Of a DNA stretch of 34,246 nt, positions 30,200 through 34,246 are shown piece after piece; the first letter of the stretch is position 1, and every line of letters begins with the position of its first letter. A program made the position numbers and the translations under genes. A model generated the notes under the pieces. The model was given only the letters and a program-made list of their open reading frames with translations. It was not told the origin of the DNA and ran no database searches. The DNA is taken from positions 1 through 34,246 of the IMG/VR virus record IMGVR_UViG_2529292882_000018; one strand, 5' to 3'. Origin of the DNA: a virus. Its lineage: Duplodnaviria > Heunggongvirae > Uroviricota > Caudoviricetes.

Positions 30200-31198
30200 A
30201 TGAATACTACTTTAGCAAAGGATATCGAATTTACCACAAAAAGCAAACGTGCGACCCCTCCGGTCGAATATGAAACCAGAATCATTAAAGTTTGTCAAGT
30301 GCATGGGTGGTTATACAGTGGTTTTGTGCTTCCTGTAAAGAAACCATTCCAGAACACCAAAGTTTGCATAGAAGTTAACGGAAAGGTTAAAACGCCATGT
30401 ATTAGTCATGTTCTAACTGGTCAGTTTACTGGCAAAGATAGAGTATCACCGCCTAAGAAGAAGTTTAGATTTACCGAAGAAGAACACTTAGAAAACGCTC
30501 GCAAGTTCTACAAGCCGATAGGGTGGGATGTGTTAGGTCTGGCTGAACCTTATCAGGGTGTTGACACTAAACTAATTCTTCGTTGTAAGTGCCACGGAAA
30601 GATTCACAAGAAAGGTGATTTACACAATAACCGCAGACAAGGCGGGTTAACATGCCCTTTGGTTAGGGGTGTACTTAAATCAATTCAGAATGGTAGAAAA
30701 CAGGTTATCAGAAACAAGTTTGCACAGCGCCCTATGCACTTTTATCTAATTCGTGTTGGCGAGAAGTTTTTCAAATATGGAATTACCACTCGCAAAGATC
30801 CGATGCAACGGGTAAGAGAACACCAGAAGCACACCAGCGAGAAAATCACCTTTGAATGCTCACATTTGTTTAACATTGGATGGAAAGCTGGTGATTTAGA
30901 AATGGGGATTAAAAAGAATATTCAGGGCAAGAAAATCCCACGTAAGGTAATGAATAGCGGATTCACAGAAACGCTACCGATTAGCAAGTTGAAAGATGTT
31001 AAATCATTCATCAATGAATACATCCACACCAACCCATCTAAGCCAATGTATTTTGATGATACCAACGCAATCAATCTGAACAACTACATTAGTGATGAAG
31101 ACATAGAACGAGATTTATCGCAGTGGATGAATGCACCGTTAGCTGATTTAACACCGGAAGACTTAGAACTCGATTTAAGCCCTTTAGAGGCTCTTTAA
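30200..31198 (+). CDS. Cys/His-rich protein with GIY-YIG-like (T5orf172-like) segment
   Basis: 332 aa; FYLIRVGEKFFKYGITTR...RVREHQ resembles the GIY-YIG core; N-terminal Cys/His clusters suggest zinc binding; leader shares 22-bp element with gene at 3294. Confidence 0.5.
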   Translation: MNTTLAKDIEFTTKSKRATPPVEYETRIIKVCQVHGWLYSGFVLPVKKPFQNTKVCIEVNGKVKTPCISHVLTGQFTGKDRVSPPKKKFRFTEEEHLENARKFYKPIGWDVLGLAEPYQGVDTKLILRCKCHGKIHKKGDLHNNRRQGGLTCPLVRGVLKSIQNGRKQVIRNKFAQRPMHFYLIRVGEKFFKYGITTRKDPMQRVREHQKHTSEKITFECSHLFNIGWKAGDLEMGIKKNIQGKKIPRKVMNSGFTETLPISKLKDVKSFINEYIHTNPSKPMYFDDTNAINLNNYISDEDIERDLSQWMNAPLADLTPEDLELDLSPLEAL

Positions 31199-31271: not shown

Positions 31272-32951
31272 TTAAATTCCAAATTCCTGTAATGGACCTG
31301 GTATTTCCTCTTCTGGTTTCCAGTTCTTATCTGTCAGCATGTCTAAACATGGATGCAAAACAAGCCCGTTACTTTCCAGAATCTGTCTATCATTGATAGT
31401 TTTCAAATCAATGAATATCCGGCCTTTCCTCGTTCCTCTTGAATTTTCTATTACAACTCTCTGGGTCTTTCCATCGATGTATTCCAGTACAAACAAGTTT
31501 TTGTTTCTGTCAATCCTGCTACACCCGATCCGCTTTAGAGCTTGCTTAATCTTAAACCGGACCTTTAGTCGTTCCTCGTTATAAACATCTTCTAAATCAA
31601 ATTCTGCGAGCTTCTCCCAGCCTTGAGAGTCCACAGAATACATTTCCTCTTCTGCCATCTTGATCTGATTGTAGAGTGTTTCACGCTCGCTATTGAGGGT
31701 AGTAATCTGATCGGCTAGCTCCTTCGTTGCTCCTGTCATAGCAGAAAGGGCAATCAGGTTATCAATCTTGCGTGATATCTCATCAACCTGTACTTTCAAA
31801 GCCGGAACCGGATTAGCCTTATCCTCAGCAATCCAGATTTTATCAGCCAGCAATTGCAATACAGCTTTCTCTAATTGATCCCCTCGAAAACTCCAGTTTG
31901 GATGCTCGCAATCAAGTCTACGTGAACGGGTCGCATCACATGTATAACGATACTGGTCAGAACGTTTGTTTGTTCCCTTCACTTTAACCATAGCGCAACC
32001 GCAATGATCACATTTCAATAGGCCAATGCCACTAAGCAGGGGGATCGGTTTAGCTTCTTCCTTGTCTCCAAAGTTCCATGCTCTAGCACCAATATTTTTC
32101 TTAAGGTGATAGAACGTAGCATCATCAATAACACGAGGGTAATAATCCTTTAACTCATAGTTAACGCCATCTACAGAGACTTCCTTGATACCAATCAAAG
32201 CGCGGGTATGGAACAACCTTTCAACCATTGCCCGTGACCATTTTGAATGCTTCTTATTACTAACCGCTGGTGGCGGTGTATATGTCTCGTTAAGGTGATC
32301 CAGTATTTCGGCGGTTGAACGTCCATTCTTCCGTAATTCCACAATCTCCTGAACAACAGGGAAGTACACCGGATGAGGCAGCACATAACCGGAAGTGGTA
32401 TCAGTCCACCACATATTCTTTCCAACTTCCTCGATAGCCACTGCCGGATTTTGTGGATTTTCTTGATGAGCTTTAATCTTAATCAATGCGCTTGAGTTAG
32501 TACGATTGCGCTTAGTCTGGCTTTCCTCATTACCACGGATGAATAAAAGGATGGAGAACATCAGGTCCATCGGGTTAGCGGTAACAGTATCCAGCGAGTA
32601 GATCTTGTTATCCATGCCAGTAACAATGGTTATTCCCCTACGGATGATTGAAAGGAATAACTCCTGCGCACTGACAATATCGGCACGGGATAAACGGTCC
32701 AAGTTTTCGATGAATAGCCAGCTACCAACAGGAACGGATCTACCTATTGCATCAAGGAAACGAGATAGCGCCCCTGTTTTGGAGTTAGCACCTTTAAACG
32801 CAGATACACCCAGATCCTGATAATCATTTACCAGTTCAAGGTCATACTTTGCCGCAATCTCTCTCGCCATCCTGATTTGTCGTTCATAACTCGAACCATC
32901 ATTCTGACGCATAGACGAGAAGCGAATATACGAATATAGTTTAGTTTTCAT
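31272..32951 (-). CDS. large serine recombinase
   Basis: 559 aa; N-terminal YIRFSSMRQ serine-recombinase catalytic motif and ENLDRLSR block; CDHCGC...C...C zinc-ribbon; C-terminal coiled-coil. Confidence 0.85.
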   Translation of the reverse strand: MKTKLYSYIRFSSMRQNDGSSYERQIRMAREIAAKYDLELVNDYQDLGVSAFKGANSKTGALSRFLDAIGRSVPVGSWLFIENLDRLSRADIVSAQELFLSIIRRGITIVTGMDNKIYSLDTVTANPMDLMFSILLFIRGNEESQTKRNRTNSSALIKIKAHQENPQNPAVAIEEVGKNMWWTDTTSGYVLPHPVYFPVVQEIVELRKNGRSTAEILDHLNETYTPPPAVSNKKHSKWSRAMVERLFHTRALIGIKEVSVDGVNYELKDYYPRVIDDATFYHLKKNIGARAWNFGDKEEAKPIPLLSGIGLLKCDHCGCAMVKVKGTNKRSDQYRYTCDATRSRRLDCEHPNWSFRGDQLEKAVLQLLADKIWIAEDKANPVPALKVQVDEISRKIDNLIALSAMTGATKELADQITTLNSERETLYNQIKMAEEEMYSVDSQGWEKLAEFDLEDVYNEERLKVRFKIKQALKRIGCSRIDRNKNLFVLEYIDGKTQRVVIENSRGTRKGRIFIDLKTINDRQILESNGLVLHPCLDMLTDKNWKPEEEIPGPLQEFGI

Positions 32952-32960
32952 ACCATTTCC

Positions 32961-33000
32961 AAAACAAAAAGCCCCTACCGCGTATTATAACGATAGGGGC
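32961..33000 (-). terminator. intrinsic terminator for minus-strand gene 33017-33262
   Basis: GCCCCTA...TAGGGGC hairpin preceded on + strand by AAAACAAAAA. Confidence 0.65.
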
Positions 33001-33016
33001 ATTGGTTAGTAAGTCA

Positions 33017-33262
33017 TTAATATTTCTTTCCAGTTAGTTTTGCATCACGTTTATTAATATCCTCGATATGACTCCATACACACGCAGTAATAAAGTCGTC
33101 ATCGTCACCAACTCCGGCAACCTGTGCTAATTCAGTACACAGTTGATTTAAAGAAGGTGCAACGGCAGCACGCTTGACACTATCACCCTGTACATATTGT
33201 TCGGCATTTGCAGCACCAACCAAACCCAGAGCAAGAACAACACCCGCGATAATCTTTTTCAT
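33017..33262 (-). CDS. small secreted/periplasmic protein
   Basis: 81 aa; N-terminal MKKIIAGVVLALGLVGAANA signal-peptide-like segment, two Cys, DDDD run. Confidence 0.55.
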   Translation of the reverse strand: MKKIIAGVVLALGLVGAANAEQYVQGDSVKRAAVAPSLNQLCTELAQVAGVGDDDDFITACVWSHIEDINKRDAKLTGKKY

Positions 33263-33307
33263 AGTAGAATTTCCTCTTGTTATTTGAATTACGATATATT
33301 TATATCG

Positions 33308-33433
33308 TTAAAAATTGATGCTAATTACCAGACCAAACACAACCGCACCAATCAAATCAATCCAGTTAATACACAATCCGCTATATTCTTTCTTGAATGT
33401 CTTAGATGAAATGCCATCATGAAATTGTTTCAT
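33308..33433 (-). CDS. 41-aa peptide with C-terminal hydrophobic segment (not in ORF track)
   Basis: Hand translation MKQFHDGISSKTFKKEYSGLCINWIDLIGAVVFGLVISINF; GGGGTG upstream; start is 4 nt from upstream peptide stop. Confidence 0.35.
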   Translation of the reverse strand: MKQFHDGISSKTFKKEYSGLCINWIDLIGAVVFGLVISINF

Positions 33434-33436
33434 TGC

Positions 33437-33517
33437 TCACCCCATACTAACGACAAGATAAGAAAGACTAATCATAGTTGTGAGACTACCTCCCACGAAT
33501 GAGATAAAAGCTAACAT
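33437..33517 (-). CDS. 26-aa hydrophobic peptide (not in ORF track)
   Basis: Hand translation MLAFISFVGGSLTTMISLSYLVVSMG; GGAGA RBS 7 nt upstream. Confidence 0.3.
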   Translation of the reverse strand: MLAFISFVGGSLTTMISLSYLVVSMG

Positions 33518-33534
33518 GTTTGATTCTCCAGTTT

Positions 33535-33560
33535 AAAAAGCGGTGGGAATTGCACCCACC
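33535..33560 (-). terminator. intrinsic terminator after gene 33575-33961
   Basis: GGTGGG-AATTGCA-CCCACC hairpin preceded on + strand by AAAAAG. Confidence 0.65.
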
Positions 33561-33574
33561 AAATTAGAAATTAA

Positions 33575-33961
33575 TTAAGCGCGAACGATGGTCAGAGTAT
33601 CCAGCAAACCTTTTTCGTATAATTCGAAACACGTTTTATATTGCTCAATCTGGAAACCATAGCGGGTGATCTTATTCAGTAGGACAATCGCGCTATTCTC
33701 ATCTAGGTATTGTCCTTGCTTACCAATTACATATGACTCGCGGGATAGTTTCAGCTTACGGAAACCTTTAACACCTAATTCCTTAGCCACCGCTTTAATC
33801 TCTTTAATCTCACCCTCAGCCGCAACATATTCAGCGTCGATAATCTCAGGTGATGATCTCAGTGCTACCAGAACTAAGGCCATTGCTTCTTCTTCGGTAC
33901 GAGCAACACCAGCTTTCTCGAAAGTCATCTCACCAAATTTACGAATCATGATATTGAACAT
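33575..33961 (-). CDS. hypothetical protein
   Basis: 128-aa ORF. Confidence 0.55.
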   Translation of the reverse strand: MFNIMIRKFGEMTFEKAGVARTEEEAMALVLVALRSSPEIIDAEYVAAEGEIKEIKAVAKELGVKGFRKLKLSRESYVIGKQGQYLDENSAIVLLNKITRYGFQIEQYKTCFELYEKGLLDTLTIVRA

Positions 33962-33973
33962 TGTTTTGCTGCC

Positions 33974-34246
33974 TTACTTCTTGCTGATAAACTCTTTAGC
34001 GATAAAGTTGATTACTTCTTTCAGCTTCTTGTCTGTATCGATGCACGCCGGTAATTCTTCTTTAATCTCCTGCGGCAGATACACATTGCCTTTAAAGTGG
34101 AGGAAACCATCATTACCAATCATGTAGGAGAACATCCATTCACAATCGTTATCCGCTTCCCAGAACGCTACGGTCTCATCGCCAATCAAGGTAATGTCCA
34201 TGTTGCGACGTGCTGCGTAGTTGATGATTGCTTTGCCGATGTTCAT
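33974..34246 (-). CDS. hypothetical protein, may extend beyond window edge
   Basis: 90-aa ORF whose start codon is the last three bases of the window. Confidence 0.45.
   Translation of the reverse strand: MNIGKAIINYAARRNMDITLIGDETVAFWEADNDCEWMFSYMIGNDGFLHFKGNVYLPQEIKEELPACIDTDKKLKEVINFIAKEFISKK

Follow-up and report, generated by a model that had tools for sequence, protein, structure and literature searches.

Bacteriophage T4 encodes a superinfection-exclusion pair composed of Imm, an 83-amino-acid (aa) inner-membrane protein, and Sp (Spackle), a periplasmic protein of ~75 aa in its mature form. Prophages also carry morons, or lysogenic-conversion genes, near their attachment (att) sites and integrase (int) genes; HK97 gp15 and lambda lom and bor are examples, and mycobacteriophages place variable defence genes beside the integrase. 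In lambda, cIII and Kil are encoded upstream of int. Here, we describe a set of three small open reading frames (ORFs) that adjoins an integrase gene on the minus strand of IMG/VR virus record IMGVR_UViG_2529292882_000018, all 34,246 nucleotides (nt) of which were analyzed (“the window”). We call the frames ORF-A, ORF-B, and S, and the set the module. All three are genuine genes that a temperate phage translates together, and the most plausible functional class for them, as candidates, is superinfection exclusion or membrane modulation.

A first-pass annotation had read this region, from the letters alone, as an unannotated operon of two tiny hydrophobic peptides and a secreted protein between two terminators. 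The co-oriented, closely spaced frames of 26, 41, and 81 aa were indeed all found at their positions, and the tiny ORFs fall below the usual gene-calling thresholds. The GGAGA ribosome-binding site (RBS) of the 26-aa ORF was present, and this ORF is as hydrophobic as had been claimed: it has no charged residue and a grand average of hydropathy (GRAVY) of 1.6. The 41-aa ORF has the expected C-terminal transmembrane (TM) segment and starts close to the upstream stop codon, its ATG being in frame with ORF-A, 3 nt beyond that ORF’s TGA (TGA-GCA; window 33434–33439). The 81-aa protein has a signal peptide (residues 1–20) and two cysteines (Cys42 and Cys61). Each of the three frames has its own Shine–Dalgarno (SD) sequence. 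Two parts of the description had to be qualified. The term “unannotated” applies to ORF-A, which was annotated in none of the records inspected, and mostly to ORF-B, which is annotated in few genomes (WP_274540528.1, WP_265343599.1), but not to S, which RefSeq holds as a hypothetical protein (WP_000719871.1). The module does lie between two terminators in the literal sense that both hairpins exist, but it is probably not a self-contained unit, as no promoter-like site separates the first hairpin from ORF-A.

The annotation had also named conservation of the reading frames in relatives as a check, and the frames were kept. We ran it on ~45 related loci (numbered L001 onward) from complete Escherichia coli genomes, 25 IMG/VR contigs, and contigs with diverged ORF-B homologues recovered by protein search; the diverged loci were assigned to Salmonella enterica or Hafnia paralvei by their adjoining host genes. 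ORF-B was intact in all of these loci, and ORF-A in all except L019, where it is frameshifted. Among the E. coli alleles, the segregating sites of ORF-B were 17 synonymous versus 8 non-synonymous (p = 1.8e-7), and those of ORF-A were 6 versus 3 (p = 0.0066); the two shifted frames, used as controls, gave p > 0.7. Codon position 3 holds seven of the nine polymorphisms in ORF-A, and the three replacements are conservative (M/I, L/I, and Y/C). For ORF-B, the pairwise ratio of non-synonymous to synonymous substitution rates (dN/dS, Nei–Gojobori) was 0.04–0.3 in every pair of E. coli and Salmonella alleles. The first 15 residues of this protein, M[KR]QFH[DE]GISSKTF, are fixed across alleles, while their codons vary synonymously (CAA/CAG, GGC/GGA/GGT, TCA/TCT, TCT/AGC, and ACA/ACT), and an in-frame 3-nt deletion occurs together with an AGC-to-TCG serine codon switch.

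Single-nucleotide insertions and deletions were confined to the A–B spacer or to positions upstream of the ORF-A SD, and the GGAGA was retained where they fall just upstream of it. Between lineages, the synonymous sites of ORF-A are saturated; the diverged alleles nevertheless keep 25–27 codons, a GRAVY of 1.6–2.5, and the pattern MxxL(I/L)SF...T(I/M)xSxVYxVV, and the homologues of Salmonella and Hafnia are 25–26 aa long. One E. coli allele of ORF-A, MKLLELLILSIFSAF[FV]LAVYIVVIV, is strongly diverged yet unchanged in position, its divergence being too great for dN/dS to be informative. Because the frames are kept in ~45 loci from three genera, and because the concentration of changes at synonymous sites occurs in these frames only, the pattern exceeds what chance would give. 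We thus conclude, with high confidence for ORF-B and slightly less for ORF-A, that the two frames encode proteins and are under purifying selection.

The gene order in the window is 90aa-128aa-A-B-S-terminator-integrase, with the two leading genes denoted by the lengths of their products; this operon starts ~40 nt inside the left prophage end. The ATG of the 90-aa gene is the final base triplet of the window, placing the prophage/host junction ~40 nt beyond it. In four Salmonella/Hafnia loci (L011, L041, L043, and L049) the genes run A-S-B, and start and stop codons overlap as ATGA both from A to S and from S to B; in L047 the order is A-62aa-S-B, and in L015 ORF-A overlaps ORF-B directly, again through ATGA. 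Overlaps of this kind between successive genes indicate translational coupling. In Salmonella and Hafnia, ORF-B is followed by a conserved strong terminator and then by the integrase gene. One contig in ENA, in which the TGA of ORF-A is changed to TGG, encodes a 68-aa A–B fusion (P0016). Its AlphaFold2 (AF2) model, computed from the single sequence, consists of two long helices (predicted local distance difference test, pLDDT, ~76) compatible with a TM hairpin, but it is too weak to build on. We rejected a conserved A–B fusion or programmed read-through, since A and B do not keep one frame relation among loci: the spacer can be 1 nt longer, the genes can overlap through ATGA, or S can lie between them.

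The predicted properties of the three products place them at the inner membrane and in the periplasm. ORF-A would be a single-pass inner-membrane helix. A double-glycine bacteriocin leader was considered for it and discarded, as other alleles do not keep the GG. In ORF-B, the N-terminal 15 residues are polar and basic; by the positive-inside rule, the protein would be tail-anchored in the inner membrane in an N-in/C-out orientation, with the conserved peptide in the cytoplasm. The signal peptide of S, MKKIIAGVVLALGLVGAANA (followed by EQ, with cleavage between ANA and E), is tripartite when read from the sequence: MKK, IIAGVVLALGLVGA, and ANA ahead of EQ, with an AXA site and no lipobox cysteine. 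Mature domains unrelated to that of S are preceded by the same, conserved signal peptide. S is accordingly predicted to be secreted in a Sec-dependent manner. An AF2 model of the mature 61-aa protein, built on an alignment of the S family, is a two-helix hairpin (helices 28–49 and 55–77; core pLDDT 85–95) in which Cys42 and Cys61 stand opposite each other, suggesting a disulfide staple. S would therefore be a periplasmic helical hairpin, probably held by that bond. Homologues of S in the Salmonella/Hafnia loci are 75–80 aa long, and their signal peptides and two invariant cysteines align. A profile search with S returned only 23 clusters, every one from E. coli or Salmonella.

How the module might be transcribed was approached by scanning for sigma-70-like sites, scored as matches to 12 consensus positions. 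On the coding strand of the E. coli version, no site of at least 9/12 was found between the upstream hairpin and ORF-A or inside the operon; the best matches were 8/12, and an internal promoter for A-B-S in this version was rejected. As the first hairpin is followed by no promoter-like site ahead of ORF-A, the unit probably forms the distal portion of a longer operon beginning at the prophage end, and transcription of A-B-S probably enters from upstream and passes through the moderate hairpin. We rebuilt attP from attL, attR, and intact ycdX, the interrupted host gene (attL, L001 3393–3424; attR, L044 10820–10842), and rebuilt the attP of prophages integrated in hicB likewise (L005/L046). Both types contain ...GGGTTGACT-(17 nt)-TATCATGTACCC..., that is, TTGACT-17 nt-TATCAT, a 10/12 match. 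It is the sole site of at least 9/12 in attP, and none reaches that score in E. coli attL, attR, or attB. The crossover, whose dinucleotide in the ycdX type is TT, lies inside the 17-nt spacer, and integration parts the −35 from the −10. The −10 ends 31 nt before the operon’s first ATG, that of the 90-aa gene, and ahead of a GAGGGGG SD. In the circular genome, the gene upstream of this candidate promoter ends in its own terminator. From this arrangement we infer that the operon’s main promoter may exist only in the circular phage genome and be split by integration, which would argue against strong expression in E. coli lysogens.

Features of the module and its surroundings (coordinates are those of the window; SD, Shine–Dalgarno sequence; TM, transmembrane)
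Feature	Coordinates	Strand	Description
ORF-A	33437-33517	minus	26 aa, MLAFISFVGGSLTTMISLSYLVVSMG; hydrophobic mini-protein, predicted single helix
ORF-A SD	33525-33529	minus	GGAGA, 7 nt ahead of ATG
ORF-B	33308-33433	minus	41 aa, MKQFHDGISSKTFKKEYSGLCINWIDLIGAVVFGLVISINF; C-terminal TM segment
S	33017-33262	minus	81-aa protein with Sec signal peptide, two Cys
S SD	33272-33278	minus	AAGAGGA
90-aa gene	33974-34246	minus	first of att-proximal operon; PHROG 6147
128-aa gene	33575-33961	minus	second of operon
Large serine recombinase	31272-32951	minus	559 aa; prophage integrase; next gene downstream of module
Terminator-like hairpin upstream of ORF-A RBS	33541-33561 plus T-run (feature 33531-33561)	minus	-11.4 kcal/mol, z = -2.2
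Strong terminator closing operon, after S	32971-33000 plus T-run (feature 32961-33000)	minus	11-bp stem, -20.4 kcal/mol, z = -4.2
Short AT-rich hairpin between B and S	33292-33307	minus	CGAUAUAAAUAUAUCG; -5.7 kcal/mol, z = -3.0

Three hairpins punctuate the operon. The one ahead of ORF-A, with its 7-bp stem (GGUGGGU/ACCCACC) and loop GCAAUUC, is an intrinsic-terminator-like site of moderate strength. Compensatory changes preserve its stem in other alleles, while the T-run is sometimes missing; because loci with a third ORF-A allele keep the stem by such changes and lose the T-run, this hairpin may be more than a terminator. Hairpins of the same family, GG(Y)GGG-T(G/T)(C)AATT-CCC(R)CC, recur between cassettes (window 33531–33561; L008 1514–1535; L009 1383–1406; L048 2154–2171). 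Comparison of E. coli, Salmonella, and Hafnia reveals compensatory changes in the stem of the strong terminator that separates S from the integrase gene, and the loop of this terminator holds an invariant TATAAT (window 32971–33012, minus strand). A 9/12 site at this terminator, TTACTA-17-TATAAT, would initiate transcription within the hairpin, and the terminator may thus double as the integrase promoter. The short hairpin between B and S is preserved in a Salmonella relative through a compensatory change (CGUUAU/AUAACG).

The window is a nearly complete prophage, integrated in ycdX, whose genes include terminase, portal, fused protease-capsid, tape measure, and tail fibres. We found the module in 58 of 5426 complete E. 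coli genomes, mostly at 95–99% identity and always on the chromosome, and in 25 IMG/VR prophage contigs that were retrieved with a degenerate pattern for the ORF-B N-terminus. It also occurs in prophages of Salmonella enterica and Hafnia paralvei. In E. coli, the prophage interrupts ycdX or hicB; the group is present in ~1% of the complete genomes, and the same ycdX site is used in Salmonella and Hafnia. In all loci examined, a large serine recombinase gene is next downstream of the module and in the same orientation. Among 50,697 phage records, the module DNA had no match, near or distant. The best cultured relative of the capsid protein shares 45% identity across 73% of the length, and for the integrase, identity in the phage collection reaches no more than 33%. 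With no isolated phage matching the module and a capsid relative this remote, the prophage group is unstudied, and there is no annotation to borrow. Species-representative genomes (one genome per species) lack the module, as judged from an exact degenerate DNA pattern that matched none of them. A literature search returned no paper with the ORF-B peptide sequence and none tying ycdX to a serine-recombinase prophage; one paper rich in mentions of ycdX deals with a frameshift allele rather than a prophage. Two E. coli genomes carry insertion sequences (IS) at the module: IS911 just past ORF-B, and IS1 inside ORF-A with a deletion up to the lysis genes (L008 1798–2966; L010 1560–2314). These insertions suggest that the module is dispensable for the host in decaying prophages.

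The position between ORF-B and the terminator behaves as a slot for exchangeable cargo. In L005, L006, and L012–14, S is replaced by unrelated genes. Other genes thus take the place of S or accompany it: the slot of L002 holds a 113-aa protein with a TM segment and a coiled coil, and those of L005, L015, L048, and L049 hold secreted proteins of 132–139 aa that reuse the same RBS and signal peptide. A shared translation-initiation region, AAGAGGAAATTCTACTATGAAAAAGATTATCGC..., was observed across unrelated downstream genes (window 33257–33290; L002 3400–3830; L004 2770–2930; L005, L009, and L015), and several slot genes share an identical 20-aa signal peptide up to the cleavage site. From this sharing of RBS and signal-peptide sequence, cassettes appear to have been swapped by recombination there. 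In a single E. coli prophage, a third tiny hydrophobic ORF (27 aa, MKQVIACASVLLVTVYCSAGLVWVIAH; L004 2813–2896), seen once and with the shared RBS, lies between B and S. L006 (1813–2859) and L023 carry in the slot a 348-aa protein that combines three CapR domains with a T5orf172/GIY-YIG nuclease-like domain, and nuclease-like genes (PHROG 681 endonuclease, T5orf172, and MUG113) vary beyond the integrase (window 30200–31198). Together, these genes suggest that elements of the homing-endonuclease type drive mosaicism around the integrase. An OmpW/Ail-like outer-membrane beta-barrel gene was seen upstream of ORF-A in the same operon of Salmonella prophages (L047 2104–2853; L048 2198–3130), and at the other end of hicB-type E. 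coli prophages there is a gene for an LprI-family lysozyme inhibitor (L046 15450–16220).

The 128-aa gene product resembles, in its C-terminal half, a separate ~80-aa protein of the Salmonella relatives (52% identity). Its N-terminal part weakly resembles the Salmonella 62-aa protein (E = 5e-4 in a single comparison), whose gene sits between A and S or B. As judged from these alignments, the 128-aa protein is a fusion of two small domains encoded in the Salmonella relatives by separate genes of ~62 and ~80 aa; the same building blocks thus recur in different orders. RefSeq names the protein “beta/alpha barrel domain-containing protein”, and its C-terminal part has a Rho_N/SAP-like KGFRKLKL motif. 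It received no family assignment above threshold.

Searches for relatives of known function were negative throughout. The products of A, B, and S had no matches in Pfam, PHROGs, PADLOC, or NCBIfam. Neither the S nor the B profile found a match among PDB sequences, the fold searches were empty as well, and Pfam, PHROGs, and PDB sequence and fold searches yielded no homology to T4 Imm or Sp. Rfam contained no credible family for the module; the only two matches at E ≤ 1 were at chance level and lay elsewhere. Against 1.84 billion cluster representatives, an ORF-B profile recovered nine clusters only, all of them 39–41-aa members of the family or their fusions. The A and B families and the coupled trio are new, although small envelope proteins of phages encoded beside the integrase are already known as a kind.

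The reading that we tentatively prefer, while giving it somewhat less than an even chance, is that A, B, and S act together at the inner membrane and in the periplasm in superinfection exclusion or modulation of the host envelope, in a layout like that of Imm and Sp. According to this proposal, A-B-S would be the distal genes of an operon that runs from attL to the integrase gene and is expressed mainly from a promoter found only in the circular phage genome, and the three products together would alter the handling by the envelope of incoming DNA or phage. If the attP promoter is real, such exclusion or modulation may work from the non-integrated genome. The envelope context is consistent with this proposal: it includes the swappable secreted cargo, the outer-membrane beta-barrel of L047 and L048, and the LprI-family gene near att. 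Several points weigh against it. Family, PDB, and fold searches provided no functional homology evidence for any of the three proteins. Exclusion genes usually differ from one related phage to the next, whereas A and B belong to the conserved core of this group. S is replaced in some loci, and the trio is therefore not obligatory. If the promoter is split, the operon would be silent in lysogens, such that classical exclusion by a prophage fails and only an early-infection version is left. The promoter candidate itself can be questioned: the attP motif may be an integrase half-site sequence, and the ycdX and hicB att types are not independent evidence, as their phage arms are nearly identical. 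Moreover, one Salmonella attL has a hybrid 9/12 site, two Salmonella relatives have a promoter-like site of their own for ORF-A, among them L047, where ORF-A (GTG start) is served by a 9/12 site that follows a terminator. Regulation may thus not be the same in all lineages. A particular form of this reading, which we consider rather doubtful, treats A-S-B as a three-part device. Two single-pass micro-proteins (26 and ~40 aa), resembling a split two-TM hairpin, and the periplasmic hairpin would be translationally coupled in fixed proportion, with expression wired through attP. Such a device would act between DNA entry and integration or after excision, e.g., by blocking competing phages or by sensing the envelope for the lysogeny decision.

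Comparable support exists for a different role, in which A, B, and S are early-infection host-takeover or lysis-lysogeny factors, akin to lambda cIII and Kil, made only from the circular genome and inactive in the stable lysogen; the B peptide would bind an inner-membrane or membrane-associated host protein, such as a protease or a division protein, and thereby bias the establishment of lysogeny or protect the infected cell. We hold this to be unlikely but worth keeping in view. It would account for a promoter-like element that spans attP and is lost upon integration, for the constant position of the module next to the integrase gene in the same orientation, for the invariance of the B N-terminal 15 residues despite synonymous turnover, and for the fact that A and B are core rather than variable genes of the phage group. 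Set against it are the strong terminator between the module and int, the likeness of the adjoining cargo (the outer-membrane beta-barrel and the secreted proteins) to lysogenic-conversion genes, the failure to find similarity to cIII, Kil, or known regulators, and the candidate promoters of some relatives, which would function in a lysogen. A role as accessories of lysis timing, with holin-, antiholin-, or spanin-like proteins serving the phage lysis cassette, is improbable. Small single-TM proteins with a periplasmic helical protein do resemble the layout of the T4 antiholin RI, and an M15-family endolysin gene of the phage is a few kb away, but the lysis and structural genes occupy the other strand, and the integrase lies between them and the module. 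The module also has no dual-start motif, no charged C-terminal tail, and no match to a PHROG lysis family.

Two further explanations were considered. The first-pass annotation had likened them to type I toxins, and A alone as such a toxin, or A and B as a membrane-toxin addiction module that stabilizes the prophage, would suit very short, hydrophobic products (26 aa with GRAVY 1.6; 41 aa with a C-terminal TM) on a mobile element. This explanation was not supported, and we deem it very improbable. A consensus scan showed no plus-strand promoter-like site over 33300–33570, though weak promoters could escape it, and there was no Rfam match. The ORFs are instead part of a polycistronic operon, ATGA-coupled to flanking genes in relatives; the SD of A is canonical and exposed (GGAGA) rather than sequestered; A has no charged or polar tail of the sort common in type I toxins; and the IS-disrupted copies show no obvious compensating arrangement. 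With neither an antisense RNA signal nor a stand-alone regulated transcript, the model fails two defining features. Equally improbable, in our estimation, is that the small ORFs are only regulatory upstream ORFs that control the downstream cargo and encode functionless peptides. The tight spacing and overlaps with downstream genes, along with the variable slot after B, could be read in this way, but the amino-acid sequences are themselves conserved (dN/dS is low, serine codons switch family, and one motif is invariant), and in many loci the terminator directly follows B, leaving no downstream gene to be regulated.

Annotation of phages and bacteria systematically overlooks proteins shorter than 50 aa; in this case, comparative data alone sufficed to call two of them with confidence. 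The families that ORF-A and ORF-B represent are new and confined to an uncultured prophage group from E. coli, Salmonella, and Hafnia. Their conservation beside the integrase, the cytoplasmic peptide predicted for B, and the secreted partner make this locus a tractable case for studying envelope micro-proteins of temperate phages. The cargo slot, with its common RBS and signal peptide, illustrates how prophages exchange secreted accessory proteins. If real, the attP-spanning promoter would be a simple topological switch, confining the operon to times when its serine-integrase phage is not integrated.

Such a switch has relatives among the junction promoters of circular intermediates (IS911 and IS30 circles, Tn916, and the state-dependent int promoters of integrative and conjugative elements; see, e.g., PMC13023037). 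As in those cases, a −35 and a −10 are joined only in the circle and parted by integration; the present case differs in that it concerns the attP of a large-serine-integrase phage and an operon of envelope mini-proteins, and in that the candidate promoter is possibly integrase-binding sequence. Like Hok, Ldr, TisB, Ibs, and ShoB, A and B are short hydrophobic peptides on a mobile element, but they differ from them in lacking an antisense RNA signal or a family match, in being polycistronic and coupled, and in having an exposed SD. Closer in form are AcrZ, MgrB, MgtS, KdpF, and CydX, which are also proteins of 20–50 aa with a single TM helix that were missed by gene callers and found via frame conservation. 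A and B differ from these in that a phage encodes them and that they form a pair which also has a periplasmic partner; their sequences show no similarity to those of the named proteins. With morons the module shares its site at the prophage end beside the integrase, its envelope-directed products, the terminator that bounds it, and the adjacent slot for swappable cargo. Absence from some close relatives, as expected of morons, was observed for the cargo downstream of B and in part for S, but A and B, far from being sporadic, were present in every related prophage examined and are conserved throughout the phage group, which spans three genera; in addition, the E. coli module has no evident autonomous promoter and no homology to named morons. 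Finally, although it has no sequence or fold homology to Imm or Sp, the module resembles the T4 pair in combining small phage-encoded inner-membrane protein(s) with a small, helical, Sec-exported periplasmic protein, and possibly also in drawing its expression from the infecting genome and not from a repressed prophage.

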